From positions 64,001 through 128,000 of IMG/VR virus record IMGVR_UViG_3300028840_006907: a stretch of DNA of 64,000 nucleotides; one strand, 5' to 3'. This document shows positions 2,341 to 30,025 of this stretch, piece by piece. Position 1 is the stretch's first letter. Every line of letters starts with the position of its first letter. A model generated the notes under the pieces. That model was not told the DNA's origin. It saw only the letters and a program-made list of their open reading frames with translations, and searched no databases. Source of the DNA: a virus. The position numbers were made by a program, and so were the translations under genes.

Positions 2341-5300
2341 ATGTACTCTATTGATGATTTTATTCAAACTGTTTTTTCATATACTCTTCAGAAACAGAAA
2401 TTCTTCGCAGCAGCAGAACGTGCTTTAAAGAAAAATCTCCAATCCTATATACGCCCCGACTTTTTCGGAACTAGTTCGGGAGATGTCCGACTAGATAATT
2501 TACTTGTATCTCTCGCCAATAGATTGGGTGAAGCTGATGTTGAAGATAAAAGAATTTTTCTTGAAGATGCAGTAAGTGATTTTGTCTCAGAAGAGAAGGC
2601 TGACGAGTTAAGAGCAATCCTTGAAACCAAATTGGAAAGAAAACATAAAATCCCTGAAGAACTAGCTGATAAATTTATCAGTAAATCAGGTTTACTTGTT
2701 GATGAAGAGAAAAAAGAATTTGATCGTGTGAAGAAAGATATGGTCAAATTGATCTCAGGTTTTATTTACGGTTTCTTCGAAAATAAATTTAAAGAATTTG
2801 TACGAGCAAAAAAGAAAAAAGAAGATATCGGTAGAGAAGTAGCCCCGGATCTAGAAGTCCTGCCTGATAGTGAATTAATTGATCAAGCTGAAAAAGAACA
2901 AGAATGGCAAGAAGGTTTAACTAAAGATCTGTTTGGATATATCAATAAAAATGTTCCGGAAAAAAGGCGCTATGCTTATAAAATGATCTTGTTAAAAAGA
3001 TTTATGGTAGCACCAGCTAGTAGGATGGGTTTTGTTGAAATGGCAGAAAAGACAGGAATACCCAAATCATCTCTGGAAGAATGGGAAAAAGATTTGGGCC
3101 GTAGACTTGCTGAATATCTCTCTGCAGGTGGCCTTGGCCCTAAATTCGTTAGTGAGGGTGGCCTTTATAAAAAAGATGTTAAAGTTCCCGATTATAAAGA
3201 TGTTTTTAAAAACAAAGAGAATTCGAATGATTTCAAAGATTTCATGGAAGGCAAACAACCAAAAACCGGTAAACCCATGAGTGAGAAGGTAAAAAAAATA
3301 TTAGAGTTGTTTGCTGAAGGTAAAGATACCAAGGAAATCGAATCACAGACTGATGCGAGTATTGGTCAGATAAAAAAATTAAAAAGTACTCATTTCTCTC
3401 CCTGGTATAAAGAGTGGTATGCTGAAATGCTTAAGGATGTCAGAGAAGCTACAGAACGTATAAAGAAAGCTCTTATGATAATTAATGGTGAGACACCTCC
3501 TCCAGCTTCTCATGAGAAATATGTGAATATGGCAATAGCTAAAAAATACCCTCTTGAACTTACTGTAACTTTTAGTGCCAATTATGATAACCAGGATTTA
3601 ATAAAGGAAAGTGATCGAGTTGATCCGGAAAAAGACCCGGTTGATTTTAAATACAAACATTACCAGGTAAAATTAGAAAGGACCAGTAGACCCCGAATTG
3701 AATATACTTTTGATCAAAAATTAACCGATAAAGGTGATTTTGAAGGTAGCCCTCGATCATCATTGGTCATTGAAGGAAATCCTGGTCATGAAGGTTTGAG
3801 AAGAAGGCTCGATGAATATGTCGAGCAAGAAATGAAACCAGAGGGTATCCTTCCTTACGGTCCTTCGGTAAAGGGTAGAAAACCTGTCCAGATCCCTGTT
3901 GAATATGTAAATGAATCTCTTGATAGTACTAAGACCTATGATGGGTCTAAAAAAAGAAGATATCGTGGATTTATTGATTTCGCTGACAAGTACAAAGGTT
4001 TCATGGTAAAAGACCAACCTCATTTAACCCGGGTTCAGGAAGAAAGTAAAAGGGAAGAGAAGAAATTGTTACCTAAGGGTGGAAAAAATGAAATTCGAAA
4101 ATTGATCCAGCATTTAAAAGAAAATATTGGTGATGAAATGGAAGAGACTACACCCGATAAGAAAAAAGTTGAGGTGTGGAAAAAACAGATTAAAGAATTA
4201 CAGGATCATTTGAAGAAAGATTCTGAAAAAGAAATAGTGGATTTTGTCTCAAAACATAAAGAGAGGTTTAAATTCGCTGTCTCTGAAGAGCGCATGAAAA
4301 ATGTTCGTGAATTGATGAAACTCAGAGAACTAGTAGAAAACCAAGAACAACGATTGTTACAAAGAAAAATGAAAGGTGATCCTAAAGATAAGGATACAGT
4401 TAAACTTAAAGAAGATATAGCAACAAATAAAGATAAAATCACTAAGCTCGAAAAAATCCTTGAAGAAACAAAAGAGCCATTTCCTCCACCAGAATCGGCT
4501 AAAGTTCAAAAGTTATTAAAGGAACTTTCTGATCTCGGTATTAAAGACAGAAAATTAGAAGAATTCCTGACTTCAACTGATCTCCAATTTTTTGTTAACC
4601 AGGTACAAGGTGCTCTGGCCAAGGAAGCACAAGATAATATCGCAGGTGTTAAGAAAAACAAAAATATGAGTGATGAGGAAAAGAAACAGGAATATGAAGC
4701 TATTGAGAGAAAACGTGGTGTAAAGCTGAATAAATTTATCGAGTTGTTTGAAGCTGTACCTGAAGACATGAAAAAACGTCTGGAGAAATATAAAAAGGCT
4801 GATCCCAGTGGGTATAAAAAATTAGAAAAGAAGCATGGGGCTCTTTTAAACTGGGTAAATAATCCTGAAAAAGCCCTCTCTAAAGTAAAACAGAATCTTT
4901 CTACACCGAAAACTCTTGAGGCTCCAAAAGGTAAACAGGAATCAGTGGTACCTATGGAGGAAGAGGATGCTAAATACATGCTCAATTGGCTTGAGGCCCA
5001 GTTACAGGGTTTCGATGTTATAGGAGAAAGATTTGGTCAGGCAGCTTTAAAAGCAGAAGGTTTAAGTCCACAAGAGAGAGTTAAGGTAGAAAAACAATTA
5101 AAAGATACAGAAAAAGAGTTTCAGGATTTACGAAATAGAATAGGTGAAATGGAAGGTAAAGGGAAGGCTACCACTAGTGAAATCAAAGATCTGAAAAAAG
5201 ACATACCGACTTATATGAGAACAATAGAAGGTTTAAAAAGTTCTCTTTCTGATTCAAAAGAATCTCCTGCTATGATTATGGCACAAGTTTTAACTGATCG

Positions 5301-6923: not shown

Positions 6924-7682
6924 TTGGAGACATCTGTGAAGTATAGCGTACTTGTACCCTACTATAAACGCCTAGGGCACCTACATAATACCTTTATTTC
7001 CTTTCTACACCATTATTCAGATAGAAATGATTATGAGGTTGTCATAGCAGAAGATTATAAAAATGTCCAGAATAAAAAAGACCATGACGGTCTATCAGAA
7101 ACCATTGAGAAATTCCGTGAAAAAATACCGATAATTCATTTAACTCTTTCTATGGAAACCTGGAATCCAGCTCATGGTTTTAATGAAGCTGCAAAGTGGG
7201 CTTCTGGTGAATATTTCGTTGTAACCAATCCAGAATGTTTCCATCAAGTGAACATACTGGCTGGACTCGATAAAGAATTTGAAGAAGACCCCAATGTCTA
7301 TGTTGTATGTGGTTGTATGAATTATGTCCGTTGTAATTTTTTTATTAAAAACTTTAATGATCTAAATGGAAAATTTCAGAGATGGTACCAACACTCAATA
7401 CATAGAGCAGCCCACTATCATTTCTGTTCAGCTATTTCAAAACAGAATTGGGTAAAAATAGGAGGATTCGATGAAGACTTTGCTATGGGTATAGCCTATG
7501 ATGATGTCGATTTTAAATTAAGCATTCAAAAAGCCAAGATACCCTTTCATATCCGGGATGACCTTCTTACTATACATATTGACCATGGTTCCTTCCCATC
7601 TCCTCCAAATGCTCAGAAATTAGTTAATCGAAATAGAATCACCTATCAAAGAAAATGGGAAGGAAGTAATGAATCTTACTAG
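6924..7682 (+). CDS. putative glycosyltransferase-like protein
   Basis: 252-aa ORF with non-ATG start (TTG 6924 or GTG 6936); weak GT-A-like features only. Confidence 0.35.
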   Translation: METSVKYSVLVPYYKRLGHLHNTFISFLHHYSDRNDYEVVIAEDYKNVQNKKDHDGLSETIEKFREKIPIIHLTLSMETWNPAHGFNEAAKWASGEYFVVTNPECFHQVNILAGLDKEFEEDPNVYVVCGCMNYVRCNFFIKNFNDLNGKFQRWYQHSIHRAAHYHFCSAISKQNWVKIGGFDEDFAMGIAYDDVDFKLSIQKAKIPFHIRDDLLTIHIDHGSFPSPPNAQKLVNRNRITYQRKWEGSNESY

Positions 7683-9762
7683 TTATACCGCAGCCGACAG
7701 TATCCCGATAAAATTGATTAAGAACTTTAAATTGTTAAAGTCCATGACAACAAAAGGAGTCATCTTACCAATCCATGTCCAGTTCATACCCACAAATAGA
7801 TGTAACATGAAATGTGGATTTTGTAGCTGTGCTGAAGATGACAGAAAAACAGAAATGTCCCTTAAAAATGCTAAGAAGATCATCAGAAAATTAAAAAAAC
7901 TCGGTACTCAATCCGTAACCATCACCGGAGGAGGAGAACCACTCCTTTATCCTCATCTCCAAGAATTGTTTTCTCTGTTTAAAGATGCCGGGATAAAAAT
8001 CGGTTTTGTTACCAATGGCCTCTTATTAGGTAAATGTACCTATGAAGATGTAACCTGGTGTCGGATTTCTAATTCTGATGAAAGAAAAATGGACATGGAC
8101 TATTATCACACAATAGCTTATGCTGTTGAAGATAACCCAAACGTGGACTGGGCCTTTAGTCATGTCGTTTCTCCAAAACCAAATATCTCCGAAATAAAAC
8201 GGATCATAGAATTTGCCAATCTCCATGATTTTACCCATGTCCGATTAGTAGCTGATCTATTGAATTATAAAGAAGTAGATTTAATGCAGTTAAAAATCAC
8301 TCTTCGAGATGAAAATGTCGATGATGATAAAGTCATCTATCAAAGTAGAAATACCCCGCTCAGAGGCGGAGACTGTTATATATGCTATCTTAAACCCATG
8401 ATAGGGGCTGACTGTAATGTGTACGCTTGTTGTTTAGAGGCTAATGAACCTGTATTAATCCAGAGAAATAACGAAAGGATGTATTTATCTATAAAGGATG
8501 TTGTTCCAGGGGATTATGCTTGTGAATATGGAAAGATTTTAAATGTGTTTCATAAAGAGGGTGAAGAAGGCTTGGAAATAGTTTTGCAAAATAATAGGAC
8601 TATTTATGTTTCGAAAGATCATCTTATGCTTAAATTGACAAACCCTGAAATTAGACATAAGAGAAAGAAGTTATTATCTGACTATGAATTAGATACAATA
8701 GAATCTTCTGAATTAAGAATTGGAGATTTACTTCCGGTCAAATATAAATATGATATTAGTGAAATAAAAGAAGATACTATATCTGAAGAAGAAGCAGAAT
8801 TAATAGGATATTATGTAGCTGAAGGTTGGTCCAATGAACGAACTTGTATAGTTGATAAAAAATATCCTACTAGAACTACCACTATAGGATTTATGCTAGG
8901 GAAAGAGTCAAGAGAATATATAAGAAGATTTGAAGAAATTTGTGATATTTTGAATCTAAATTTTTCTATGACTGAACGTAGAACTGGTATGCAGTATCAG
9001 ATAGGTGCACATAAACCCTACGATGACTTAATTGTACACTGTGGTAATAAAGCAGAATTAAAAAAGATCCCTCCTTTTATTTTAAACGGCTCTGATAAAA
9101 TAAAGTGGAAATTTATTCAAGGCTATTTTGGAGGTGACGGGAATTTTCAAACTCCTTCTAAAAGCTATGATGGTTTTAAAATGAGAATGAGTACTGTCAG
9201 TAGACAACTAGCTAATGATATAATTTATCTCTTTTGTACTTTAAATATTCATGCTTCTATGAGAGTTGAGAGACGTGAAGGAAAAATGATAATAGAAGGA
9301 AGAGAGGTAAATGCTAAAGATCGGTATCATATAAATATAGGGGGAGCCTATAATTTAGAAAAAGCCCCATTCCTAAATGTAATTCAAACAAAAGAAAGAA
9401 GTCCTAAAAGAGCCCTCGGTTTTTTGAAAGATGAGGATAAGGGCATTATGTTTGTACCAGTTAAAGAGATCAGAGAGAAAAAGTTAGGAAAATTAGTAGA
9501 CATTCAAGTGGAAGGTTCAAATAAATTTATATCTTCATTTGGTATAATAGTTCATAATTGTGGCGTCCAGTATGCTCTTAAAAAGCCTTCAAAGAATCTT
9601 CCTAAGAAACTGAGCCTAGGAAGTGCTTTTGATCTTGAGAAGATAATTGAGAACAGTAATAAGCCCCTGGACGGGAGCATGTGTTATCGATGCTATTATA
9701 GTAATTATAACAAGATACTAGGATCCATCCTGGATGATACCGATCATATGGAGTTTGTATGA
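7669..9762 (+). CDS. radical SAM protein interrupted by an intein
   Basis: CNMKCGFC (CxxxCxxC) Fe-S motif near N-terminus; about 376-aa insertion with intein hallmarks. Confidence 0.7.
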   Translation: MNLTSYTAADSIPIKLIKNFKLLKSMTTKGVILPIHVQFIPTNRCNMKCGFCSCAEDDRKTEMSLKNAKKIIRKLKKLGTQSVTITGGGEPLLYPHLQELFSLFKDAGIKIGFVTNGLLLGKCTYEDVTWCRISNSDERKMDMDYYHTIAYAVEDNPNVDWAFSHVVSPKPNISEIKRIIEFANLHDFTHVRLVADLLNYKEVDLMQLKITLRDENVDDDKVIYQSRNTPLRGGDCYICYLKPMIGADCNVYACCLEANEPVLIQRNNERMYLSIKDVVPGDYACEYGKILNVFHKEGEEGLEIVLQNNRTIYVSKDHLMLKLTNPEIRHKRKKLLSDYELDTIESSELRIGDLLPVKYKYDISEIKEDTISEEEAELIGYYVAEGWSNERTCIVDKKYPTRTTTIGFMLGKESREYIRRFEEICDILNLNFSMTERRTGMQYQIGAHKPYDDLIVHCGNKAELKKIPPFILNGSDKIKWKFIQGYFGGDGNFQTPSKSYDGFKMRMSTVSRQLANDIIYLFCTLNIHASMRVERREGKMIIEGREVNAKDRYHINIGGAYNLEKAPFLNVIQTKERSPKRALGFLKDEDKGIMFVPVKEIREKKLGKLVDIQVEGSNKFISSFGIIVHNCGVQYALKKPSKNLPKKLSLGSAFDLEKIIENSNKPLDGSMCYRCYYSNYNKILGSILDDTDHMEFV
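8431..9558 (+). mobile_element. intein with LAGLIDADG-type homing endonuclease domain
   Basis: Starts with Cys (CLEANEP), block-B-like SKDH, LAGLIDADG-like LIGYYVAEGW and FIQGYFGGDGNF, ends IIVHN followed by Cys. Confidence 0.6.
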
Positions 9763-11617: not shown

Positions 11618-11983
11618 TCACGTGGTTACCGGCTTCTCTTTCTTTTTTAAGGTGCTTCTCAATTTCCTTGATCTGGTCTTGCATAAATTCTTTTTGTCGT
11701 CCCATTCTTCCAGACCTCCCTTATTGAGAGTATCATTTTTAAGCGTTAAGTTCAAGTCTCTTAATGACATACATGGAACATCCCGTACTCGTTTGGAGTT
11801 CCATATAGGGCATACAGTATGATTACACCTATTAGGACCTAACCTACACTCGACATTAAAATGTCCAGGTTCTCCGGCATAGAGGAAATTTCGTTCTATG
11901 CAGTGCGCCTGGAATACCTGAAAAGGCATTATCTTTTCGACACTTACCCCGTTTTTATGTGATTTATTATTCATATTTTTCAT
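11618..11983 (-). CDS. hypothetical Cys/His-containing protein
   Basis: ORF-track start at 12127 lies inside the repeat array; trimmed to internal Met at 11983. Confidence 0.3.
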   Translation of the reverse strand: MKNMNNKSHKNGVSVEKIMPFQVFQAHCIERNFLYAGEPGHFNVECRLGPNRCNHTVCPIWNSKRVRDVPCMSLRDLNLTLKNDTLNKGGLEEWDDKKNLCKTRSRKLRSTLKKKEKPVTT

Positions 11984-12019
11984 TCTAGGAATGTAAAGTA
12001 TTAGAGGATTATTAAGGGG

Positions 12020-15018
12020 AGGGAAACCCCGCTCAGATGCAGGGAAGAAGATTTCATTAAGAAGTTTTAGGAAGAGCCCCGCAGAGGAGGAACCTCGCAA
12101 GATGCGGGGAAAAGGAACTTCAGGCAATTGGCTGGGATTAGCCCCGCGAAGGTGCGGGGAAAACAGTTTCCATGAACTATATTAGGGAGAGCCCCGTTGA
12201 CACGGGGAAAAACCCGTCTTTACTTAGTGAGATCGAGGAAGGAACAGCCCCGTTGATACGGGGATAAAATAATATGACTTTTACGAATCCTCTAGGGACA
12301 GCCCTGCAGAGTGCAGGGAAAAGTAACGTCTGGGAATTGTTTAGGATTAGCCCCGCGAAGGTGCGGGGAAAGCCATAGATTTTATATTGACACAGGAAAA
12401 ACCCCGGTATAGTCCGGGGAAAAGTACGTAATCAAGATGTAAGAGGATTAGACCCGGCGAGTCCGGGAAAAGATTGGCCCAATCACTATTAAGTAGGGTG
12501 GGATAGCCCCGCAGAATGCAGGGAATAGATGCCTCACTTCATACCACTGCGTCAACCCCAGTAGAGTCCGGGGAACATGAGTGTAAATCTCTGTCGTAGG
12601 TTCAACCCCGGAGAGATCCAGGGGAAATGGGTACAACTTTGTGTACAAGGGGTAGCCCCGGAGAAATCCGAGGAAAATGAGTGTAAATCTGTGTTGAGGG
12701 TCCAGCCCCGCTCAGTGCAGGGAATATTAAGGGTCAAAACCGGTTGCCCCTGCGTCAACCCCGGTGAAGTCCGGGGAACATGAGTGTAAATCTCTGTGGT
12801 AGGATCAACCCCGCAGAGTGCAGGGAAAAATTGAACTTTTTAATCAACCCTGTAACAGCCCCGGAGTCAGTTTTGACAAGTCCGGGGGAATATCACTTCG
12901 TAAAGGAGTGGCTGTCAAGGGGGCAACCCCACAGAGATGTGGGGGAAAGTAAGCCAACGTTCCGGCATAGGCATAGCCCCTGAATTTACAGAGGGCAATT
13001 TTTCCAGTGTCCAGAAGAAGATGCAGGGAGAACCCCGGAAAGTCCAGGGGAAAATGTGTCACAGAACAACTCTTTGTGATCTCCAGGGTGAACCTCGCAG
13101 AGGTGCGGGGGAAAAGTGTCAATGAATACCAGTATGAGTCAGCCCCGGTATAGCCCGGGAATAATTACTTCTAGTCTGATAGAAGGTGCAACCCCGGGAA
13201 GTCCGGGGAAATCGGTCATAGCCATCTGGACCAGGAAGAACCCCGGTGAGATCCGGGGAAAAGGACGTTTAAATCCTGACATAGTAGCTAACTGAGGCGT
13301 AGCTCCGGTCGGGTCAGCCCTGCAGAGAGCAGGGAACAAACATAGGTAATAAATCGGCACGTGACAGCCCCGCAGAGAGGCGGGGATATATAGCGTGAGT
13401 TGCAGGGTAAGGTTCAACCCTTGTTTACCAAGGGAAAAATACCGGCAGATAAGAATTTAGGATGACCCCCGGTGAAAGTCCGGGGAAAATAATTAATACG
13501 CAAAACAGCAGGGCCAGTCCCGCGAGATGCAGGGAATGTTCAGCCAGTTTGTGTAATATTTCAGGAGACGGTGGTGCAACCCTGTCAAGGACAGGGATAT
13601 GCAACATCTGTGGCTCTACGAGGATCAGCCCCGGCAAGTCCGGGGAATTATCTTTTTATAAATGCCAAAAATAACAGTTGGGAGGGGCCAATTCCGCTGA
13701 TGCAGAAAGACATTTCATAATTAATATATTTATGGAAGAGCCCCGGTGAAATCCGGGGAAGTCAAGTAATTACAGCTCGCTGACCACTGGGGGTAGCCCC
13801 GGTAAGATCCGGGGAAAAGTTTGTTTTGAAACAAACGCTAGGAACAGCCCCGCTCAGGTGCGGGAGAATCACTGCATATTTGGTTAATGGCCCCCCTGAG
13901 TCAATCCCGCTCAGGTGCGGGGAAAATAAAGAGATAGACTAATTCAATATGCAGGAAGAACCCCGCTATATGCAGGAAAATTTAAAAAGTATGGATATCT
14001 CCTTGAGTCAACCCCGGAGATCCAGGGAAATGTAGGCACTCGTTGTCCTTTGTCGAAGTGTGAAGGGCAAACCTCGTTGATACGAGGAACAAATTTAGTT
14101 TTACTTTTGAATAAAAGTGGTCAAGCCCCGCTCAGGTGCAGGGAATAGATAAGTATACCGACGATAGCCAGGACAGCACCTGTGGTTTAGCCCTGCATGT
14201 GCAGGGAATAGTTGAGTTGAAGATTGAAGAAAAAGATAAAGTAGGGTCAGCTCTGCATGTGCAGAGAATAGCCTTTCTTCAAGCGTTGACTTGGGAGTAG
14301 GTGGGGATCAGCCCTGCACATGCAGGGAATAGAATGGTGAATCAAATTCCATTTTGTCAAAGAACGGCGACAGCCCTGCCAGTGCAGGGAATATGATTTT
14401 AACGATGGTAAAATTGGGAAGGGGTCAGCCCTGCACATGCAGGGAATAGTCGCTAGTTCAAATCCAATCGCCCCGACAGGATCAGCCCTGCATACGCAGG
14501 GAATAGAAAATACTGACGATAAACTAGCGATATGGGATCAGCCCTGCATACGCAGGGATATAGCTTGACGAATGGCCGTTTTAATGCCAGGAGTAACCCC
14601 GCTGCGAGGAATAGTCATTTCAAATATATAGGTAAAGCCCCGCGAAAGAGCGGGGGTATAATATGGCGGATTTTGTTCTATTGGTGGAATCCGGGCCATC
14701 CCCGTAGATTGACACGGGGAGATCTTTTAGAAATCTACCAAGGTGCCTTTCCGGAGTCATCCCCGTATATACGGGGGAGATTTCAATTCAGGGAATTTCG
14801 GTACAAAATTGGTCGGTTTATCCCCGTATACACGGGGAATATTGTTTCAATAGGGCATAGCAGATCTAGGATCGGGGAATCCCCGCAGGGGCGGGGAACA
14901 TCTCGGATTTATTAATCAAATTCAAACGTTTTTCGGGGAATCCCCGCAGGGGCGGGGAACATTGTTTTAAGAGGTGGTAGTTACCTCGTAGGGGAATCCC
15001 CGCAGGGGCGGGGAACAT
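12020..15018 (-). CRISPR. CRISPR array 1: about 55 hairpin repeat units, three identical leader-proximal repeats, progressively divergent distal repeats
   Basis: Leader-proximal repeat (minus strand) ATGTTCCCCGCCCCTGCGGGGATTCCCC at 14874-14901, 14935-14962, 14991-15018 with 33- and 28-nt spacers; periodic CCCCGC/GCGGGG-type hairpins back to about 12020. Confidence 0.8.
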
Positions 15019-15127
15019 ACTAAGTCATAATGCCATTCAAATCAAAGGTTTATAGGAACCCTAATTTTCTACCAAAGAAAAATGTACTTGTCATGTATAA
15101 ATGTCAAAGAGCGTCAGAGAGAAATCC
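15019..15127 (-). promoter_or_regulatory. CRISPR leader 1 with conserved ~50-bp block shared with leader 2
   Basis: 15058-15112 nearly identical to 22627-22677; contains TTGACA on the minus strand. Confidence 0.5.
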
Positions 15128-17359
15128 CTAGTGGATATACCGAATCCATTCATATCGAATTTTCATCGTTTTATAAGGAGCTTTTTTTCTCCCTGGAAAT
15201 ATGTTTCCTTCAAAAAGGAAAAATTTTTGAACAATTTTAAATTCAGCGTTTGATGGTGTCAAGCTCTGTGGTGCATAATCCGAACGCCAGTAATTATTAC
15301 AATATATAAATTTTTCTTCTCTGTCTTTTTGTATAAGGCCCGGAAACACCACTAAAACTATCTTTTCGTTTTCAATAACAATATCCCCTTGATAAATAGC
15401 TATTTCTAAATCCAGACCATCCTGCTCTATCACACGAGCATATTTCGAGAGTTTCCCATCAATCTTTACTTTAGCTTTAGGGGGAATATCAAAAGTTATC
15501 CATTCACCTTTTATGTCCTTAATGCTTTGAATAGGTTTTTTAACTGGAATTTCTTGAAAGACATGATCTTGGTATTCTGCTTTTTTAAGGATTTCTCCAT
15601 CTTTTTCCATATTAAGCAATAAAGCCTTTTCCATGATGTCTTTAAGTTCATAGAGATCTTTTTCAGTTAAGGGCTCTTTTGTTCCGAATACGATGGAACC
15701 TACATTCTCTAATCGAGCGATTTTATCAAAACCCTGTTTCCGGACAAAGTCTATGGTAATATGTTCTATTTTTCTATTTCTTGAAAGTCTTATGATTCTT
15801 ACAAATTCAGTTTTAATTGTGTCTTTGAAATTATCAAAACTTAAATGATCTTCTACGTAGGGATGATACAAATCCGCTATAAGACTTAATAAAATTTCTA
15901 TGTCTTCAGGTTTATCCTGTTTACGGTTGTAATCATAAGCTTTAATAATTTCTTGTCTCATTTCCATTAATATATCAGGAGCCATTATTTCACTTAAACT
16001 GGTAGATCCTTTTTTGTCCCGATAAAAGGGAGCTGTTGGAAGTAAGGGAATCCTGATAGCAGCACAAAGTTCTGACATTACAATTGAGGTTAAGAACAAA
16101 TTCAATCTGTCTGAATATAATGCCCTGATATTATTACGTTCTTCTTTTTTAATAGGTGGAACATAAATGTATAACCATATTTTATCTTTTTTAGGGTAAC
16201 ATCTGAAAATACGAAACATTATTTGAGAGAAGGTCACCTGACTCTTTCCATAACTTGTATTATGTAAAACAGCAGCAGGAGGCCAATCATACCCTTCATA
16301 GAATATTCTGCAAGATACGGCGACCCAGTATTTTTTATGATTACGTCTCAATAACTCTCTATTTTTTTTCTGAGTTTCCGGTGTGACTAAATCCAGTACT
16401 TTGGACGCAGGATATATTTCGTGAATAGCTTTTAAATATTTTTTAAGGGTTCCTTCCTCTCTGAACCGGTTCCCCATGTCAGGTAATATGACAATGTGTC
16501 TTTGATCTTTGTGCTCTTTCATATATCTAATGATCTGAGTAAGGGGATCTTTCCTATAGTGAGTGAAACGGAAATTGAATTCTTTGATTTTTATGATTGA
16601 GAGATAGTCATTTAATGGGATAACCCATTTTTCAAAATGATGTTTATAAGCATTGGGGACTATTTCTCCTCTGTCTGTGCGGTGGTAAGTAGCTGTATAA
16701 AAATTTACGTTACAAGTAGGTTCATGGATGGTACATACATCTCTGACAAAATCACCCAAATGAGTGGAATCTAGTGGGGTTGATTTTGAATGATGGCATT
16801 CATCTACATGTACAGTTAAATTTCTAAGGGCTTTCTTTTTTTCATAGTTGGTTAATTTTTCCCAGGTCATGACAAACCCTCTATGGGTAGCTGTAGCAAT
16901 AGGGCCTGTTATATGTTTTTCATTGTACGGGTATTTTCGAGGATCTGCTAAAAGGAATTCTTTAAGTCCTTTAATGGATTGAGGGTTTTCACTATTGAAT
17001 TTATGTTCTTTTGGTACTTCCCACAATCTTACCATACCTTTATATTTGATTTTTATTTGTCTATTTTGGGATCTGCAGAAATTTTCACCTATTTCTATTG
17101 TTGGTGCGATAAAGATATGTTTTCGAGTATTTTTAGATATTATGATTTCATCCAGGGATATGCATACTGCTAAAAAAGTTTTGCCGACTCCCCCTGGTGC
17201 ATCAAAGATCATGTATCTGAATTTTTTCCCATATTCTTTTGCATTGCATTGCCAGCCAGAGGGTATCATGATCCCTGATTCAAGTTTTTTATTATAGGTA
17301 CCAAGGTCAACCGGTTCTATTTTAATAGATTGCTGGAAAAGCGGTAATAGCTTTTTCAT
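15128..17359 (-). CDS. SF2 helicase, Cas3-like helicase module without HD nuclease domain
   Basis: Walker A DAPGGVGKT and DECHH box; in-frame stop 18 codons upstream excludes an N-terminal extension; no HD dipeptide. Confidence 0.6.
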   Translation of the reverse strand: MKKLLPLFQQSIKIEPVDLGTYNKKLESGIMIPSGWQCNAKEYGKKFRYMIFDAPGGVGKTFLAVCISLDEIIISKNTRKHIFIAPTIEIGENFCRSQNRQIKIKYKGMVRLWEVPKEHKFNSENPQSIKGLKEFLLADPRKYPYNEKHITGPIATATHRGFVMTWEKLTNYEKKKALRNLTVHVDECHHSKSTPLDSTHLGDFVRDVCTIHEPTCNVNFYTATYHRTDRGEIVPNAYKHHFEKWVIPLNDYLSIIKIKEFNFRFTHYRKDPLTQIIRYMKEHKDQRHIVILPDMGNRFREEGTLKKYLKAIHEIYPASKVLDLVTPETQKKNRELLRRNHKKYWVAVSCRIFYEGYDWPPAAVLHNTSYGKSQVTFSQIMFRIFRCYPKKDKIWLYIYVPPIKKEERNNIRALYSDRLNLFLTSIVMSELCAAIRIPLLPTAPFYRDKKGSTSLSEIMAPDILMEMRQEIIKAYDYNRKQDKPEDIEILLSLIADLYHPYVEDHLSFDNFKDTIKTEFVRIIRLSRNRKIEHITIDFVRKQGFDKIARLENVGSIVFGTKEPLTEKDLYELKDIMEKALLLNMEKDGEILKKAEYQDHVFQEIPVKKPIQSIKDIKGEWITFDIPPKAKVKIDGKLSKYARVIEQDGLDLEIAIYQGDIVIENEKIVLVVFPGLIQKDREEKFIYCNNYWRSDYAPQSLTPSNAEFKIVQKFFLFEGNIFPGRKKAPYKTMKIRYEWIRYIH

Positions 17360-17628: not shown

Positions 17629-18273
17629 TTAATAAGATTTATACGGTGCAATAAGCATCATACCACATCCGAAACCTTTACTCTTACCAATTCCATTATA
17701 AATAGTATTCACAAAAAGATTTTTATTGACTACCTGAAGGACTCCTCGTAAATCAATACTGAAAAAAGATACAACTTTACCATCTTTTTTTTTGAATTTA
17801 CAGAATTGAAAAGATTGAACGGAATGCTTTTGAATCATATTTTTAAAACCGTAACTTTGGCCACGTTTCTGAAGCCAATTCTTTGAGGATTCGTGAGCAA
17901 TGAAATTCCAATTATAGGGTTCATCAAGAACTTTCATTTCATTTGCCAGATCCGTCATGATTGAAACCTTTTTCCTGGTTTTCAATTTACAAACTTCGGC
18001 ATTGAGTCTGAGATCGTATTGAAGAAATATTCCAGATTTTAAATTATTTAAATCGAATACTTTTGTTTGTGTAGTGTATTCGTCCTCTGGAGGATTTGGT
18101 TTCTTTTTTGATATGATATAAAGTTCACCATTATAGAGATAATAAAGGAAATCTCTTACCCTGTTAGATCTTTGATCACCAAAAAATTCCCAGACTTTTT
18201 GATGAAGCTCATATATACCTTCGGTGGGAGAATATCTTCTCAAGCTGTCACTGTAAATTTTACTCAGAAACAT
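17629..18273 (-). CDS. cas6e: Cas6e (CasE) endoribonuclease
   Basis: Start set at internal Met (GGAGG RBS); MFLSKIY N-terminus and C-terminal GIGKSKGFGCGMM resemble E. coli CasE. Confidence 0.75.
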   Translation of the reverse strand: MFLSKIYSDSLRRYSPTEGIYELHQKVWEFFGDQRSNRVRDFLYYLYNGELYIISKKKPNPPEDEYTTQTKVFDLNNLKSGIFLQYDLRLNAEVCKLKTRKKVSIMTDLANEMKVLDEPYNWNFIAHESSKNWLQKRGQSYGFKNMIQKHSVQSFQFCKFKKKDGKVVSFFSIDLRGVLQVVNKNLFVNTIYNGIGKSKGFGCGMMLIAPYKSY

Positions 18274-18910
18274 TCGATACCTCCTTCCATCCCATATACT
18301 CAATTCGGGATCGGTATTGTTTGGGACCGGTTACCTGATCAAAACGTTGATTGCTTTTTACTATTTTGATACTGGTATCGGTACCTTCCCAAAATATTCG
18401 GTTCTTTTCACGCCCTTTAAGACTACCATTAAGAAATTCAGGAAGAGAGTACTGTTCAAACGCCTCTGAGAGGCTCTCAGCCTTAACGATCTTAGGATCG
18501 GGTGGTATGTCATAGGAACAGCATTTCCTTCCAAGAAAGGGGGTATAGATGGGCCTATTAAGGGCTTCCATTATTTTCTTCAAAGTATAGGGACAGTTTT
18601 CATTCTCCCATATACATACGGTAAAGATGGCATTGACTAGGTAAAATCTATTCGAGACAATTCCTGGTCCGACTCTGACAATATGGAAATCTTTTAGAAT
18701 AGTACCAGGATTATCTTCCCTACAGGCAAATCCTAGTTGGGCAATCTGAGTTAATTCTTTCACCATTTCTCTTGAGACTCCAAGAGAAGCAGCGATTAAC
18801 CCGCTTACGCCAGATTTGGTAGGGTGATCATCTGTCTTTCGGGTATTACCCTGAAGGGGGAGACCCCAGGCGGATAGAGTACCCGAAAGAAGGAATAATA
18901 AATAATTCAT
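18260..18910 (-). CDS. cas5e: Cas5e (CasD)
   Basis: MNYLLFLLSGTLSAWG and YTPFLGRK resemble E. coli CasD MRSYLILRLAGPMQAWG and YTPYLGRR. Confidence 0.8.
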   Translation of the reverse strand: MNYLLFLLSGTLSAWGLPLQGNTRKTDDHPTKSGVSGLIAASLGVSREMVKELTQIAQLGFACREDNPGTILKDFHIVRVGPGIVSNRFYLVNAIFTVCIWENENCPYTLKKIMEALNRPIYTPFLGRKCCSYDIPPDPKIVKAESLSEAFEQYSLPEFLNGSLKGREKNRIFWEGTDTSIKIVKSNQRFDQVTGPKQYRSRIEYMGWKEVSNVSE

Positions 18911-18933: not shown

Positions 18934-20019
18934 TTAGAAATCGATGAATTTAATAAGTTCGTTAAGTGATCCTTCTTTTGTGAGTACATTCAAGATCCTA
19001 TAATCCATTTCATGGTAACATGAATCAAAACTACTTTTCATGTCAAGAAGGGCTTTGACAGCATTTTCCATAACCGCAGGACCTTTAATAGGAGTATGGA
19101 AGGCTTGACAGAGACTTCGTGGGGCAGTTGGAGCTTTTTCGATCATAACGAATGCTGGCCATGTTTGACTATCAGCACATCTGTTTTTATTAGCTGAGGG
19201 GGATGAAGTGGTTAATACTTCGACTATCTGTCGGATGGTTTTGATAGCTAGTTCTTTATTACCTTGAAGATTTTTCGTTAAGAGCTTGGAATTGATTACA
19301 AAGAAACTATAATAGACACCCTGGGTAAAATAGAAATTATCTAGGTGACCTGAACCTTTGGTTCCTTCTAATCCAAGGTTATCGGTAGCTGTAAAATAGT
19401 CGGTTTGGACAGATCCTATATCATTGACAGTAAAAGCGAAATTTGAGGACAGTGAAGCTTCAACATCATATTGGGGCAGTTTTGCAATCATGCGACCGGT
19501 AAGGGCTGTTCTGATTCCTGTATTTTCTTTTAAAAAGAAGAATTCTTGATCAGTGGGTTTATGCCCCTCAATAATTTTGTCAATCAGTTCTTCAATATGT
19601 TGTCTTTCGCTCGGTTGAATTTTAATGGTTTCGGTTTTAAGAAGATCAACCTTTTTTTTCTTTTTCTTTGTATTTTTATCATCTTCTTTTTCAGTGTGCT
19701 TTTTGATATCAACAAAAGTACCAATAAATTTAAATGCGTATTCTTCAGCTTTTTTAGGTGATATTCCACCATCAATTAATCTTTTCTCGACATATTTTCC
19801 AATAAGAGGAGTCTGAAGACCTATATCGATTTCGCACCTTTCAAATAGAGCCTTGTTTAAATCATATTTTCGATTTTGTGAAGACGAATAACCTCGGTTG
19901 GTATCATTAAGTTTCATTGTTTTAGGACGTCCGTCCTGGCCTCGGTTTATGCTAGATACAGCTACACCAGTGAGAAGGTGAATTAACCAGTAGGGGTCTT
20001 TAATAATAGTTTTAGACAT
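18934..20019 (-). CDS. cas7e: Cas7e (CasC) backbone subunit
   Basis: 361 aa; N-terminal SSINRGQDG...SSQ pattern like Cas7e SxLNRDD...SSQ. Confidence 0.75.
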   Translation of the reverse strand: MSKTIIKDPYWLIHLLTGVAVSSINRGQDGRPKTMKLNDTNRGYSSSQNRKYDLNKALFERCEIDIGLQTPLIGKYVEKRLIDGGISPKKAEEYAFKFIGTFVDIKKHTEKEDDKNTKKKKKKVDLLKTETIKIQPSERQHIEELIDKIIEGHKPTDQEFFFLKENTGIRTALTGRMIAKLPQYDVEASLSSNFAFTVNDIGSVQTDYFTATDNLGLEGTKGSGHLDNFYFTQGVYYSFFVINSKLLTKNLQGNKELAIKTIRQIVEVLTTSSPSANKNRCADSQTWPAFVMIEKAPTAPRSLCQAFHTPIKGPAVMENAVKALLDMKSSFDSCYHEMDYRILNVLTKEGSLNELIKFIDF

Positions 20020-20045: not shown

Positions 20046-21989
20046 TTATATGTTATTTGAATATTCTCTTTCCCAGTAGAACTTGACATCTTTGCTCCAG
20101 TGGGCATACCCTTCCATGAAACTGATGATGTTAAATCCTTCCATTCGAGAAACAACATCAGCAAATACTTTCCAGTTTTTTTGTATATCCGTTTTATTGA
20201 AACTCATCATTTCGTCAACATGTCGGCGGTTAATTTTTTGAGAACCCATTTGGGCACCGAAAGATTGAGAAAAATCCAGATCCTTAGCTTTAAAAACAAT
20301 TAGTAGAAGAGGTACGAAAAGAGTCTTCATATCTTCTGATCTTAAAGCAGGGAAATGCATAGACATTTCTAAAATAAAATTCAAATAAAGGTCTTCATGT
20401 TTTAAGATATCGATGTCAAAACATCGGGTAAATACCCTATGTTTTTCTGTATTTCTAATAGTCCCGTACCAGGACAGGAATGGTTTGGTAAAGACCTGGT
20501 TAAAATGAGGTAGGTTTAATTTCCTGTATTCGATATGGGCGAAATTCTCATATTCTAATGGTTGTAGTTTAAGAGGTTTAACAACTTTTTTATTTAAGGT
20601 TTCGATAAATTGTTCCTTAAAATATTTCTGTAAACCTCTCTTTTCAGTACCTACATTTTTTTCAAATGTATCGAAAGCTTTAACTACCATCTTTTCCAAC
20701 CATTTTTCGATATTATGATTCTTGAGAACTTCATAGAAGTATTCTTCAGTTTCTGTCAGAAATTCGTGAAATATTAAAGGTTCGGTTTTATCAGTTCCCC
20801 AGAACTTTCTTATATAATTACAGGTATACCATCCTATAAGATATGAGTGTTCTCTGATATTTAAAGTAAACGCACTATCTTTATAGAGTTCTTCTGGGAT
20901 ATCGAATTTATTTTCCTCCCATCCAAAGAGTTTGGCTTTAGCCATATTATAACCGAAAGTCCATAATCCGAAATCAGTTATTCCAAGATATTCTCGGTTC
21001 TCCATGAAATGACTCACCACTAAAGCTGGAGTTAATTTTTTAGCTGGTAGTAGATAGGTCACAAGATCGAGATGGCTGGTAAAGTCCAGGGGTTTCCGGA
21101 AACCTGTTTCTTTGCCTTTTATAATGGGTGAAAGGATATGACGTGGTTTGACATAACAGTTACCATAATTCCTCGTTTTTATCTTTCTAACCATTAATTT
21201 GGAATGATTGCCACAGATAGTACATGATTCATCAAATTTATCAAAGATAAGATGAATACGTAGAGGCATTTCCCAGAGCGGGTAATAAGGATTCATCTCA
21301 TCCAGGGAAACAGTAGCTTTGTTTTTACTATCAACGGTATCACTAAGCCATGGGAGTGTTACACCTTTTGGATTTCCTCCGAATTCAAACATGGTCTTTT
21401 TAATAATAACATTAGACCATATTGTTTCCCATAACGTGGAACCGGTAATAATAGTGGTAAGAGAACCATTGGCACCGGCTGTTATCGAAGTACGGTATCC
21501 TTGGCCTCCCATAATGGCACTGAGTTGATTAAGATAAAGGGCAATTGTAGCACAGGATTGGCAAAAAGTATGTATCTTTGCTTTTTGGAAGAAATCTTTA
21601 CCAGCTTTAATTGTCGCTGTCCCTGGAGTATCAAAGAGGAGATTACCAACATTTACGATTCTTTCAAGGTCCTGTGGCCGTTTATCCTGTAAAAAACGAG
21701 GACCTTTGCCATCTAGTTCAAAGAGTTTTGGTTTAAGTTTTTCTAGGATGGCTTTTTGGTTTGGTGCTTTTTTGAATAGTTTTTTCCATTCTTTCTTACT
21801 TGTAGGAGCAAGATAAGTGTTGAAAAAACCTATGAGAAGCCGTACACCTACAGCATTGAAATCGGGTCTACCGAAATCGAGAGCTATTATAGGGTTATTA
21901 GGTTTTGAAGTTATTTTGTAGGGTGGAATGTTTTCCCTGGTACCGTCTTTTCGGATGACGGGGATCCAAGGGTCCTTAATTACATTCAT
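20046..21989 (-). CDS. cas8e: Cas8e (Cse1) large subunit with about 145-aa C-terminal extension
   Basis: MNVIKDPWIPV and CQSCATIALY match Cse1 DNWIPV and CGGCTAIALF; GGAGGT RBS. Confidence 0.8.
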   Translation of the reverse strand: MNVIKDPWIPVIRKDGTRENIPPYKITSKPNNPIIALDFGRPDFNAVGVRLLIGFFNTYLAPTSKKEWKKLFKKAPNQKAILEKLKPKLFELDGKGPRFLQDKRPQDLERIVNVGNLLFDTPGTATIKAGKDFFQKAKIHTFCQSCATIALYLNQLSAIMGGQGYRTSITAGANGSLTTIITGSTLWETIWSNVIIKKTMFEFGGNPKGVTLPWLSDTVDSKNKATVSLDEMNPYYPLWEMPLRIHLIFDKFDESCTICGNHSKLMVRKIKTRNYGNCYVKPRHILSPIIKGKETGFRKPLDFTSHLDLVTYLLPAKKLTPALVVSHFMENREYLGITDFGLWTFGYNMAKAKLFGWEENKFDIPEELYKDSAFTLNIREHSYLIGWYTCNYIRKFWGTDKTEPLIFHEFLTETEEYFYEVLKNHNIEKWLEKMVVKAFDTFEKNVGTEKRGLQKYFKEQFIETLNKKVVKPLKLQPLEYENFAHIEYRKLNLPHFNQVFTKPFLSWYGTIRNTEKHRVFTRCFDIDILKHEDLYLNFILEMSMHFPALRSEDMKTLFVPLLLIVFKAKDLDFSQSFGAQMGSQKINRRHVDEMMSFNKTDIQKNWKVFADVVSRMEGFNIISFMEGYAHWSKDVKFYWEREYSNNI

Positions 21990-22210
21990 ATGATACCTCC
22001 GCGATTTATGAATGGTTGCGGAAATTTAATTATTTATGTTTTTACTCAACTTATTTATGTTTTTTTGCTTAGCTGAGACTTTGATTTAATTTTTTAATTA
22101 ACCCATTAGTTATAAAGTTAATTATAATCTAAAATAAATATAAATGCAACATTTTTTCAAGTACTTTATATATAACTATAATATTTCGAATTGTTTATAG
22201 CATGAGAAAT

Positions 22211-22236
22211 ATTTCCTCCGTTTACACGGAGGAAAT
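22211..22236. other. perfect 10-bp palindromic hairpin between array 2 and cas8e
   Basis: ATTTCCTCCG TTTACA CGGAGGAAAT. Confidence 0.35.
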
Positions 22237-22264
22237 TTAGGATTATATCAGAGATGGGCTCTGA

Positions 22265-22586
22265 GACAGCCCCGGTAAAGTCCAGGGAAATAAAAATTAG
22301 TGATAATTCGGGAATCAGCAGGAGGAGAGCATCAGCCCTGCGTATGCGGGGAATAGTGTTATCGTCTTACAGGATGTAAAGCAGAGACAGCCCCGCGTAT
22401 GCGGGGAATAGAAATTAATACATCTCATAAAATCTAGCATCAGCCCCGCGTATGCGGGGAATAGTTATTTATCTATACTTCCTACAACTCCCATAACGCA
22501 TCAGCCCCGCGTATGCGGGGAATAGCTCGTTGGTTTTCCCATTCCACAAAAGTTCAACGCATCAGCCCCGCGTATGCGGGGAATAG
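22265..22586 (-). CRISPR. CRISPR array 2: five 28-bp repeats plus a degenerate terminal repeat, four spacers
   Basis: Repeat (minus strand) CTATTCCCCGCATACGCGGGGCTGATGC at 22329, 22384, 22437, 22498, 22559; spacers 27, 25, 33, 33 nt. Confidence 0.85.
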
Positions 22587-22690
22587 ACTATAATATAATT
22601 AGTTGAAAATCAGAGAGTTACAAAGACCCTAATTTTCTACCAAAAAAAGTACTTGCCGTTTATAAATGTCAAAGAGCTTATCTTTAAAGG
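22587..22690 (-). promoter_or_regulatory. CRISPR leader 2
   Basis: 22627-22677 nearly identical to the array-1 leader block. Confidence 0.5.
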
Positions 22691-29102: not shown

Positions 29103-29312
29103 CTATTTCAACATTTTAAAATGCTTAAAGGTATCCCAAAAGAAATTTATTGTACATATGATAAAATAGCCAGGTATCAATTTTAATAAGAGTTCTTTTT
29201 TTGTTTTATATTCTCCTAACCATAAATGCCCAAGAACAACAGTCCATTGCATTAATAAAAAATTCGCTATTACAAATAATACCCATACTAATCCTATAGA
29301 CATACTTACCAC
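29103..29312 (-). CDS. small membrane protein
   Basis: 69 aa, hydrophobic. Confidence 0.3.
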   Translation of the reverse strand: MVSMSIGLVWVLFVIANFLLMQWTVVLGHLWLGEYKTKKELLLKLIPGYFIICTINFFWDTFKHFKMLK

Positions 29313-30025
29313 ATTTCCCCAATGGCCTTTTTCTGTTTATTGGTTAATTTATAAACCAGCTTGCAATTAATACATTTCATTCTAGTTATATTCCCAAATA
29401 TATCATAAAGATCATCAGTTACCTTTCCAATCTTGTGACAAGAGTTTTGCTCACCTGCAGAAATGGTCCCATCGATATTAACTGATGGAGTGCACATTTT
29501 ACCCATCATTGCAAGACCCATCATAACTTGTGAAAGAGAGTTCGCCCCTGAATTTCGGCATAAGGATCTAAGGTTAAAACAATTAGGTGCTTTAGAGGTT
29601 ATTGGAAGTTCATTTTTAATGGCTCTTCCAAAGGGTGTTATCACTCTAAGCTGATGCTCATATGTAATATTAGGATGTTGTATAATAGGTACTTCTTTTG
29701 GATAGTACCGAGGATCATTGGTAATTTGAATATTTATTCCAATTTGAATGATTTCTTTTTTTAATGTTTCATCTTCAAGAAAAGTACCATTCGATAAAAG
29801 TGCTGGCATCAAACCTATATTTTTGGCTCTATTAATCATTTCAATAATGTCTGGATGTGAAGTTGGCTCTCCGCCTGTAAGCATTATTATAGGCATTTCA
29901 AGATTTTTTAAATATCGCAATGTCTGGTCATATGTTTTAAGATCCATATGTTCACCTTCCGGACATGCATTCACTGAACAATGAATGCAATTCATATGGC
30001 ATTTTTCAGTGACTCTTACGAGCAT
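29306..30025 (-). CDS. radical SAM protein
   Basis: CHMNCIHC (CxxxCxxC) near N-terminus, Gly-rich LTGGEP. Confidence 0.6.
   Translation of the reverse strand: MLVRVTEKCHMNCIHCSVNACPEGEHMDLKTYDQTLRYLKNLEMPIIMLTGGEPTSHPDIIEMINRAKNIGLMPALLSNGTFLEDETLKKEIIQIGINIQITNDPRYYPKEVPIIQHPNITYEHQLRVITPFGRAIKNELPITSKAPNCFNLRSLCRNSGANSLSQVMMGLAMMGKMCTPSVNIDGTISAGEQNSCHKIGKVTDDLYDIFGNITRMKCINCKLVYKLTNKQKKAIGEMW

Follow-up and report, generated by a model that had tools for sequence, protein, structure and literature searches.

A phage-borne CRISPR array with structurally conserved repeats and short, length-quantised spacers: a candidate inherited guide set for smaller type I-E-derived Cascade complexes

We analysed a 64,000-nucleotide (nt) stretch of viral DNA, positions 64,001 to 128,000 of IMG/VR record IMGVR_UViG_3300028840_006907 (hereafter the window), which carries a CRISPR array, array 1, at 12019–15018 on the minus strand. 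The window lies within a very large phage-like contig (388,651 bp in the JGI record; the longest contig with the same proteins has 469,617 bp), and many of its small open reading frames (ORFs) have PHROG matches only. Array 1 comprises 55 repeat units and 54 spacers, on which manual and automatic unit calls agree, and its G+C content is about 50% as against about 33% in the flanks and the genome. Each unit consists of 5 nt, a 6-bp hairpin with a loop of 3–8 nt (1 nt in one unit, 17 nt in another) and an 8-nt handle; the leader-proximal repeat, ATGTT-CCCCGC-CCCT-GCGGGG-ATTCCCCG on the minus strand, has the layout of type I-E, and the E. coli handle ATAAACCG occurs in one unit. The leader from which the array is read occupies 15019–15127 (minus strand) and has the motif GCTCTTTGACAT...TTGGTAGAAAATTAGGG. 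This motif also stands upstream of the arrays of two related loci, L012 and L013, and its form common to them and the window is GCTCTTTGACAT…TTGGTAG(A/G)AAA. With a score threshold of >=16 the unit caller returned 56 units in the 64 kb, all of them on the minus strand and all within array 1 or a second array, array 2. The segment 12130–12830, to which a first-pass annotation of the window had drawn attention, is the leader-distal part of this real minus-strand array.

Directly upstream of the leader, on the same strand, lies a cas operon. The gene next to the leader (15128–17359, minus strand) encodes a superfamily 2 (SF2) helicase of 743 amino acids (aa) with Pfam ResIII/DEAD matches only and a core that starts at about residue 45. 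Neither Pfam nor PADLOC finds an HD or other nuclease domain in it (PADLOC Cas3, E = 0.006), and it has no sequence match in PDB; its structural model (predicted local distance difference test score, pLDDT, 60) leads Foldseek to generic SF2 helicases (XPB, RecQ). A beta-rich C-terminal domain of the helicase, residues ~620–743, is confidently modelled. Pfam, NCBIfam and PADLOC then identify cas6e (17629–18303; TIGR01907, 3.9e-34, and PF08798), cas5e (18260–18910; TIGR01868, 1.7e-35), cas7e (18934–20019; PF09344, 1.1e-52) and cas8e, also known as cse1 (20046–21989), all on the minus strand. PF09481 covers only residues 2–375 of the 647-aa Cas8e, which is ~140 aa longer than usual and whose C-terminal 270 aa are without matches. 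No ORF for a separate Cse2/Cas11 stands between cas8e and cas7. A fusion of Cse2 to the C-terminal part of Cas8e was considered and rejected, as neither BLASTP nor hhalign detects similarity, and a structurally cryptic fusion is possible. tblastn with phage Cas1, Cas2-DnaQ, HD-Cas3 and Cse2, together with ORF scans, found no Cas1, Cas2, HD-Cas3 or Cse2 in the window. Upstream of cas8e follows array 2 (22207–22586, minus strand), with 7 units, five identical repeats CTATTCCCCGCATACGCGGGGCTGATG and spacers of 32, 32, 24, 26, 35 and 24 nt; its leader, at ~22590–22690, is homologous to that of array 1.

In array 1 the structure of the repeats is conserved while their sequence is not. Stem pairs were counted by script and on units of equal length; a MAFFT alignment of all units misplaced the variable loops. 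The 55 units show 23 different arm combinations, yet all but 6 of 330 stem cells form pairs. At the pair that closes the loop, 29 units have C-G, 17 G-C and 7 U-A, and at the fourth stem pair 31 have C-G, 11 U-A and 10 U-G. Among the 19 units with 6-nt loops, which are mostly distal, the closing pair is split between C-G (10) and G-C (9), 98.2% of the cells are paired and the covariation score reaches 0.353 against 0.172 in shuffles; none of 500 shuffles attained either the pairing or the covariation. The handle follows the consensus YTNNNCCN, with T2 kept in 53/55 units, C6 in 45/55 and C7 in 54/55. The pairing table also discriminates the strand, as 17 G-U wobble pairs are valid only in minus-strand RNA and 4 only in the opposite sense, whereas global RNA folds of 12130–12830 on both strands did not; no Rfam family matched. 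Identical repeats, which in type I-E run through the array, are confined here to short blocks, one of three repeats beside the leader and a related one of seven. Since pairing and handle are kept, the distal repeats have drifted in sequence yet retained the features that, by analogy with E. coli type I-E, should be required for cleavage by Cas6e and for the loading of Cascade. Selection on the structure of these degenerate repeats had been missed by the first-pass annotation.

Loop and spacer length go together: most repeats of the short-spacer zone described below have loops of 5–6 nt, and short spacers follow 5–6 nt loops while long ones follow 4-nt loops. The repeat of unit 17 (12859–12887, minus strand) is exceptional in its 17-nt loop with an inner palindrome, GTCAAAACTGAC, and a similar long-loop unit, CCCCTGGTCAACTAAAATTGACTAGGGG, is found at ~3400–3440 of the related locus L011. 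Some spacers neighbouring unit 17 looked partly palindromic by eye (GGGGCAACCGGTTTTGACCC, TGTACACAAAGTTGTACCC and, at 13815–13834, AGCGTTTGTTTCAAAACAAA), of which reverse-complement comparison flagged only AGCGTTTGTTTCAAAACAAA.

The spacing of the units changes along the array. From unit 3 to unit 16 (12130–12830) the hairpins start 50, 56, 54, 49, 51, 51, 54, 49, 50, 50, 50, 53 and 50 nt apart, hence mostly 49–51 nt within a range of 49–56, as against 62, 61, 61, 59, 61 and 56 nt for the six units nearest the leader. The shorter distal period, which the first-pass annotation had noticed, is thus present where it had been placed, but it extends well beyond that range, from ~12090 to ~13760, interspersed with steps of 54–57 and 60–63 nt. 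We refer to 12093–13760 (minus strand) as the short-spacer zone, which is leader-distal and holds mostly spacers of 19–21 nt. With repeat boundaries set as 5 nt, a 6-bp stem, its loop and the 8-nt handle, the distal spacers indeed measure about 20 nt rather than about 32, as had been surmised. The same definition applied to three canonical phage I-E arrays (L008–L010, whose loci carry Cas1, Cas2-DnaQ, HD-Cas3 and Cse2) yields 31–34 nt with a mode of 32.

The 54 spacers of array 1 do not have the uniform 32–33 nt length of type I-E. Fifteen measure 19 nt, seven 20, one 21, one 23, five 25, five 26, three 27, two 28 and thirteen 30–35 nt, with single spacers of 15 and 46 nt. They fall into three classes of 19–21 nt (23 spacers), 23–28 nt (16) and 30–35 nt (13), whose means of ~19.4, 25.9 and 32.1 nt lie ~6.5 nt apart, not far from the 6 nt that one Cas7 takes up. 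In a Rayleigh scan, array 1 fits best to a period of 6.6 nt (R = 0.61), and a best period of 6.4 nt (R = 0.62) emerges for the 42 spacers of the relative L004, which peak at 19, 26–27 and 32 nt; in either case none of 2000 uniform nulls did as well. Among the 17 leader-nearest spacers 1 is <=21 nt long, as against 23 of the 37 others, so that the short class occupies the two thirds of the array away from the leader, 12130–12830 included. Near the distal end of the canonical L010 array, which is accompanied by Cas1 and HD-Cas3, a single 18-nt spacer (~13880–13906) stands among fourteen of 31–32 nt, and ordinary arrays, too, may now and then have spacers shortened by 12 to 14 nt. In the Cascade of E. 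coli and S. thermophilus each Cas7 spans 6 nt of spacer, and with shortened CRISPR RNAs (crRNAs) the complex loses one Cas7 for every 6 nt taken away (Kuznedelov 2016, PMC5159557; Songailiene 2019, PMC6859484). The three length classes would therefore correspond to predicted backbones of four, five and six Cas7. The suggestion of the first-pass annotation that the short spacers give truncated crRNAs and smaller Cascade-like complexes agrees with this: spacers of ~20 nt predict crRNAs of 49–51 nt, and the ~6.5-nt step between classes fits.

Part of the distal array arose by duplication. Self-comparison identifies a module with two copies, copy a at 12093–12163 (unit 2 hairpin, spacer AGCCAATTGCCTGAAGTTC, unit 3 repeat) and copy b at 12302–12372 (unit 6 hairpin, spacer AAACAATTCCCAGACGTTA, unit 7 repeat), both on the minus strand. 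They are 87% identical over 60 nt, align at a fixed offset of 209 nt and share the 27-mer GATTAGCCCCGCGAAGGTGCGGGGAAA, exact at 12136–12162 and 12345–12371 (0 expected by chance), which bears out the reported recurrence of one unit at two sites. Their spacers differ mostly at third positions (S-Q-L-P-E-V versus K-Q-F-P-D-V, read by eye). A second module family occupies 12545–12612, 12655–12712 and 12748–12815; identity between copies 1 and 3 is 85% over 85 nt, and the copy between them is more diverged. Here, the spacer-like segment TGAGTGTAAATCTCTGTCGTAGG had been described in three copies with one or two changes, and it is present at 12578–12600 (0 mismatches) and 12781–12803 (1 mismatch), but the copy near 12678 is less similar than claimed, with >3 mismatches over 23 nt and 3 over the 19-nt spacer proper. 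Every module spans a single repeat and a single spacer plus a portion of the repeat that follows, and the intervening units are unrelated. Internal duplication is thus real but minor, accounting for ~5/55 units, because the remaining spacers (~50/54) are unrelated to each other in an all-spacer comparison; the view that the array had grown partly in this manner applies to these two families and no further. The differences between copies are at synonymous positions, which suggests a functional and not an incidental duplication, one that would have made guide paralogues but not most of the array.

The spacer of the second module family, hereafter guide X, is the one for which a target family emerged. 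Its three copies lie on the minus strand at 12579–12597 (ACGACAGAGATTTACACTC), 12679–12697 (TCAACACAGATTTACACTC) and 12782–12800 (ACCACAGAGATTTACACTC), and relatives of it occur in L003 (ACAACAGAAATTTACACAC, 16/19 identical), L006/L016 (ACAACAGAAATATATACCC, 14/19) and L011 (ACAACGCAAATATACACTC, 14/19), all directly after a ...CCT handle. In frame 1 every version reads T-T-E-I-Y-T, except for window copy 2 (S-T-Q-I-Y-T) and the L011 version (T-T-Q-I-Y-T). All changes within the family are synonymous or exchange E/Q or T/S, so that its 3-nt pattern is well explained by codon wobble in a coding target. The pattern ACNACAGARATTTACACNC retrieved 25 viral loci from IMG/VR, of which 19, counted from the printed contexts, match in frame at ...D-L-R-I-I-Q-x-x-x-G-H-x-x-x-K-T-T-E-I-Y-T-H-V..., the box II of tyrosine recombinases that holds the catalytic tyrosine. 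Two of these 19 ORFs were checked and match PF00589 (Phage_integrase; 2e-39 and 5e-33). In 15/19 cases the match has a lysine codon as its 5' triplet (13 AAA, 2 AAG), and AAG is the canonical protospacer-adjacent motif (PAM) of E. coli type I-E. Equivalent patterns from u26 and u17 (two spacers described below), used as negative controls, landed in unrelated contexts. The similarity runs on into CA(T/C)-GT, where the bases of the array are the ATGTT flank of the next repeat. Box II match and plausible PAM point to integrase genes as the sequence to which guide X is predicted to bind; the viral matches show what the guide corresponds to, not a protospacer in the host of this phage.

No integrase with the guide X motif is encoded in the window, and in all fetched loci the peptide motifs of the conserved guides are found only in the arrays themselves. 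We rejected a coding reading of the array, as the three copies of guide X stand in three different frames and periods of 49–51 nt are mostly not multiples of 3. At 15254–15272 (minus strand), inside the 3' end of the helicase gene, copy 3 matches 15/19 positions, the first 9 perfectly, and a predicted promoter (11/12 to consensus) has its TTGACA -35 box in overlap with this site. As a self-target this site was discarded, being within chance expectation and absent in relatives.

Searches with Cas7, the helicase and Cas8e led to only about six independent relatives. Those homologues are 53–65% identical to the window proteins in L003, L004, L006/L016 and L011, and ~33–37% identical (helicase or Cas8e) in L012–L014 and L017–L019; Cas7-based searches for further relatives added one 1.8-kb locus in metagenomes and none in genomes. 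All relatives of this clade have the same gene set without Cas1, Cas2, HD-Cas3 and Cse2, and arrays of degenerate hairpin repeats with many spacers of 18–27 nt. In L017, twelve canonical units are followed by a degenerate tail. L017, L018 and L019 come from three samples, and over 1.9 kb their arrays show a difference of 1 nt. L006 (2190–3340) and L016 (11226–12300) hold six identical canonical I-E repeats with five spacers of 31–32 nt inside a degenerate short-spacer array, and two degenerate units separate this block from the leader, which suggests that the block was inserted or captured. L012–L014 encode a ~200-aa protein between cas6e and the helicase and a ~110-aa protein between the helicase and the leader; the two proteins tested, from L012, matched no Pfam family, and the gene tables of L017–L019 lack the ~200-aa gene.

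Several short spacers recur in related phages in register; the first-pass annotation had missed this conservation as well as the box II match of guide X. Spacer u17 (GGGTTGATTAAAAAGTTCAA, 12831–12850, minus strand) has a conserved counterpart in L011, where the non-canonical handle, CTGTTACA, is identical as well, and spacer u26 (TGCCGATTTATTACCTATGT, 13340–13359, minus strand) is conserved in L004. Both pairs match in register at 14/16 positions, with mismatches at positions 12, 15 and 18, and in-register matches of >=14/16 were observed twice against an expectation of 0.02. A weaker case is u8 (GTGTCAATATAAAATCTATG, 12374–12393, minus strand), which is similar to a unit of L004 in its handle, TTTTTCCT, and over its first 12 nt (11/16). 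The conserved short spacers occupy the same slot in the relatives, directly after the handle; a looser definition of the slot proved too noisy. In the u17 and u26 pairs, similarity is far lower in the flanking repeats than at the beginning of the spacers, and we therefore favour selection on the guide over recent transfer. Differences between orthologs fall almost only on positions 3, 6, 9, 12, 15 and 18 from the handle (pooled, 12/22 versus 3/45; p = 2.8e-5), and in the X family all six third-position columns vary against 2/13 of the others.

Elsewhere around array 1, a conserved, Cys-rich ORF of 121 aa (…FQVFQAHCIERNFLYAGEPGHFNVECRLGPNRCNHTVCPIWNSKRV…; 11618–11983, minus strand) lies directly downstream of the array. 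It belongs to no Pfam family, homologous sequence follows the arrays of L003 and L011, and the ORF may have a link to the system as an uncharacterised component. Away from the arrays, a radical SAM gene (7669–9762, plus strand) has intein and LAGLIDADG matches in the precomputed annotation, and the segments 29306–30025 and 31317–32270 (both minus strand) show a fragment of viperin-like radical SAM type and a protein with an OB-fold and an HD domain, neither of which adjoins the arrays.

Altogether, we consider it rather likely that array 1 holds mini-guides which serve smaller Cascade complexes and are retained by vertical inheritance, at least one of them aimed at integrases, and that its distal units represent intact crRNA genes, a selected set common to related phages, instead of a fading memory. 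The distal units keep the Cas6e hairpin and handle and have a spacer 12–13 nt below the canonical 32. Transcription would start from the leader, and Cas6e would cleave at each hairpin to release crRNAs of 49–51 nt. Such short crRNAs would nucleate Cascades with four Cas7 instead of six, and the 25–27 nt class those with five; the missing Cse2 filament may allow all three complex sizes. In S. thermophilus, the 12-nt register of the Cse2 filament destabilises complexes shortened by 6 nt, and Cascade with spacers shortened by 6, 12 or 18 nt forms unlocked R-loops that do not support Cas3 cleavage (PMC6859484). The short complexes would likewise bind DNA without licensing a Cas3-type nuclease and would act by binding-based interference with the target gene, possibly assisted by the helicase. 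We regard binding-based interference as the likeliest mode because the shortened S. thermophilus complexes neither lock nor support cleavage by Cas3, an HD nuclease is absent from the window and the helicase has a generic SF2 fold. Guide X would reproduce, as sense strand, the codons of the catalytic-tyrosine motif (K)-T-T-E-I-Y-T-H of tyrosine recombinases, its three copies with their synonymous or near-synonymous variation may widen the range of integrase alleles matched, and possible targets are prophages, satellites and other integrative elements, and possibly host Xer genes.

Several observations weigh against this proposal. A coherent target was found for one guide family only, as the control patterns from u26 and u17 returned heterogeneous and unrelated contexts on viral contigs and no coherent gene family, and even for guide X the copy 2 pattern met integrase-type contexts in only 4/19 viral matches. 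Exact protospacers of window spacers were found neither in the window (54 spacers) nor on viral contigs (two proximal spacers) nor in GenBank phages (whole array), and the search of the 54 spacers against the window, which the first-pass annotation had envisaged for the contig, returned no self-target above shuffles. Local-alignment scores of window spacers against those of the relatives did not exceed shuffles of this AT-rich composition; only the in-register tests were significant. Codon phase alone would give three independent guide families the same 3-nt phase relative to the handle with a probability of 1 in 9, and part of the pattern may be a property of Cascade: Jung et al. (in Cell, 2017) reportedly found that E. 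coli Cascade recognises DNA with 3-nt periodicity. Codon wobble and this periodicity may both contribute, and either implies RNAs that are used as Cascade guides. Furthermore, cas1/cas2 or an HD nuclease could lie outside the 64 kb of a 389–470 kb contig. Since E. coli spacers of >20 nt still permitted interference (PMC5159557), a mode of action by binding only is not implied by length alone. Expression, complex size and mode of action are all read from the DNA sequence.

Of the other explanations, the one that survives best, though we think it unlikely, is an ordinary array whose units, the short ones too, are fed in trans by Cas1–Cas2 of the host or from elsewhere in the phage and whose shared spacers reflect repeated acquisition from the same abundant targets instead of inheritance. 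The identical leader-proximal repeats with spacers of 27–32 nt look like recent canonical integration, and acquisition in trans is reported for type IV-A3 in a preprint (bioRxiv 10.1101/2023.06.23.546257). The window is only a part of the genome, and a 32-nt spacer of L017 overlaps the u26 sequence in a different register. However, known I-E integrases insert 32–33 nt, and we know of none that makes spacers of 19–20 nt. The short spacers share register and similar unusual handles, such as CTGTTACA in both the window and L011, which argues for common descent of the whole unit; the near-identity of the L017–L019 arrays and the position of the canonical block of L006/L016, inside the degenerate array and not at its leader end, also speak against this reading.

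Less probable still is a decaying relic, in which mutations, deletions and duplications would be neutral slippage at the old, unselected end of an ordinary array. Repeat heterogeneity does rise away from the leader, where three repeats are identical, adaptation genes were not found nearby, and most spacers are without detectable match. Neutral decay, however, would break the hairpin, whereas 98% of the stem cells pair through compensatory or wobble changes and T2, C6 and C7 of the handle are kept. Nor would random deletions yield the tight 19–20 nt class (22/54) or a ~6.5-nt periodicity in two independent arrays, leave short spacers common in register with phages of 53–65% Cas identity, or confine substitutions to every third position.

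An RNA decoy, similar to Racr anti-CRISPRs, appears very improbable to us. Its hairpins would soak up host Cas6e, Cas7 and Cas5, with the content of the spacers being irrelevant, and anti-CRISPRs of repeat-mimicking RNA are reportedly known in phages from the work of Camara-Wilpert et al. in 2023. The element is phage-borne, it offers many hairpins with I-E-like handles, and its spacers are too short for R-loop locking (PMC6859484). Yet, Racr elements are hairpins without cas genes, and array 1 has its own leader and sits directly beside the full Cascade operon of the phage; conserved spacers, in-register 3-nt substitutions and an integrase-matching guide would not be needed for a decoy, and the leader-proximal repeat is absent among 185,579 species genomes, so that no matching host repeat is known. 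Finally, we dismiss an assembly artefact, by which repeat collapse or mis-joining would have made the short period and the duplicated modules: repeat arrays are hard to assemble and several related contigs end inside arrays, but the array is identical over 3701 bp in the JGI and Logan contigs and its flanking proteins are on record from three contigs, which makes the collapse that the first-pass annotation had allowed for unlikely, and in addition the units are too diverged (23 stems, unique spacers) to collapse and independent relatives share the architecture.

Returning to the inherited mini-guides, we tentatively extend the proposal, as a possibility, to a clade of huge phages with a minimal effector derived from type I-E, made up of Cascade and a nuclease-less helicase. 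In these phages the array would be a heritable family of guide-RNA genes rather than an immune record, with mini-guides for four-Cas7 Cascades that evolve under selection by duplication and point mutation in step with the register of Cas7 and Cascade and that are aimed at the most conserved coding motifs of rival mobile elements, the integrase catalytic-tyrosine box for example, resulting in broad, escape-resistant silencing of host-resident prophages, satellites and integrative elements. If this holds, array evolution could proceed without Cas1–Cas2, with repeats drifting under structural constraint and guides duplicating and diverging like paralogous genes, and compact tools for DNA binding could draw on such loci for minimal guides that exist already and for an I-E scaffold lacking Cse2 and Cas3. 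In the literature we found no description of natural spacers quantised in Cas7 steps, of short guides conserved between phages or of a guide to an integrase catalytic motif.

The closest known system is the type I-E Cascade, with which the locus shares the Cas8e, Cas7, Cas5 and Cas6e families and the repeat anatomy, in which the hairpin CCCCGC-N4-GCGGGG precedes a handle of 8 nt that carries U2 and C6C7. Several hallmarks of type I-E are missing from a system that works with I-E parts, as Cas1, Cas2, HD-Cas3 and a separate Cse2 are absent from the window, spacers are not uniform, repeats vary within the array and the locus is phage-borne. Variable-stoichiometry Cascade has to date been known solely from engineered crRNAs, and the length classes of array 1 lie about one Cas7 step apart, similar to the -6 and -12 nt constructs (PMC5159557, PMC6859484), whereas the short spacers described here are natural, dominant (23/54) and conserved across phages. 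Natural spacers in Cas7 steps would, if confirmed as such, show that variable-stoichiometry Cascade is used in nature.

Among phage-borne systems, CRISPR loci of huge phages almost all lack Cas1/2/4, those without nuclease may repress transcription, and arrays in phages tend to be short (median, six repeats; Al-Shayeb 2020, PMC7162821). The I-C variant described there resembles our locus in its huge-phage contig, the absence of Cas1/Cas2, a helicase in place of Cas3 and the proposed repression without cleavage; it differs in that the present system is an I-E derivative with Cas6e rather than Cas6-less and has 55 units against that median of six. Neither length-quantised spacers nor conserved guides are described in the text of that study (PMC7162821). 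Type IV-A likewise combines a Cascade-like complex borne on mobile elements with a helicase, DinG, has no nuclease or adaptation module, interferes without a nuclease on spacers obtained in trans and has a proposed role in conflicts between mobile elements. In contrast to it, the proteins here are of I-E families, not Csf, and the helicase is not recognisably DinG. To our knowledge, type IV has no short quantised spacers or degenerate repeats. The I-F system of phage ICP1, directed against the PLE satellite, provides the precedent of a phage-encoded type I system that acts against a mobile element resident in the host. ICP1, however, has Cas1, Cas2-3, 32-nt spacers and active adaptation, whereas the present array would hold a fixed guide against a motif common to many integrases; if so, integrase-motif guides conserved across phages would represent CRISPR as a hard-wired weapon against mobile elements instead of an adaptive memory.

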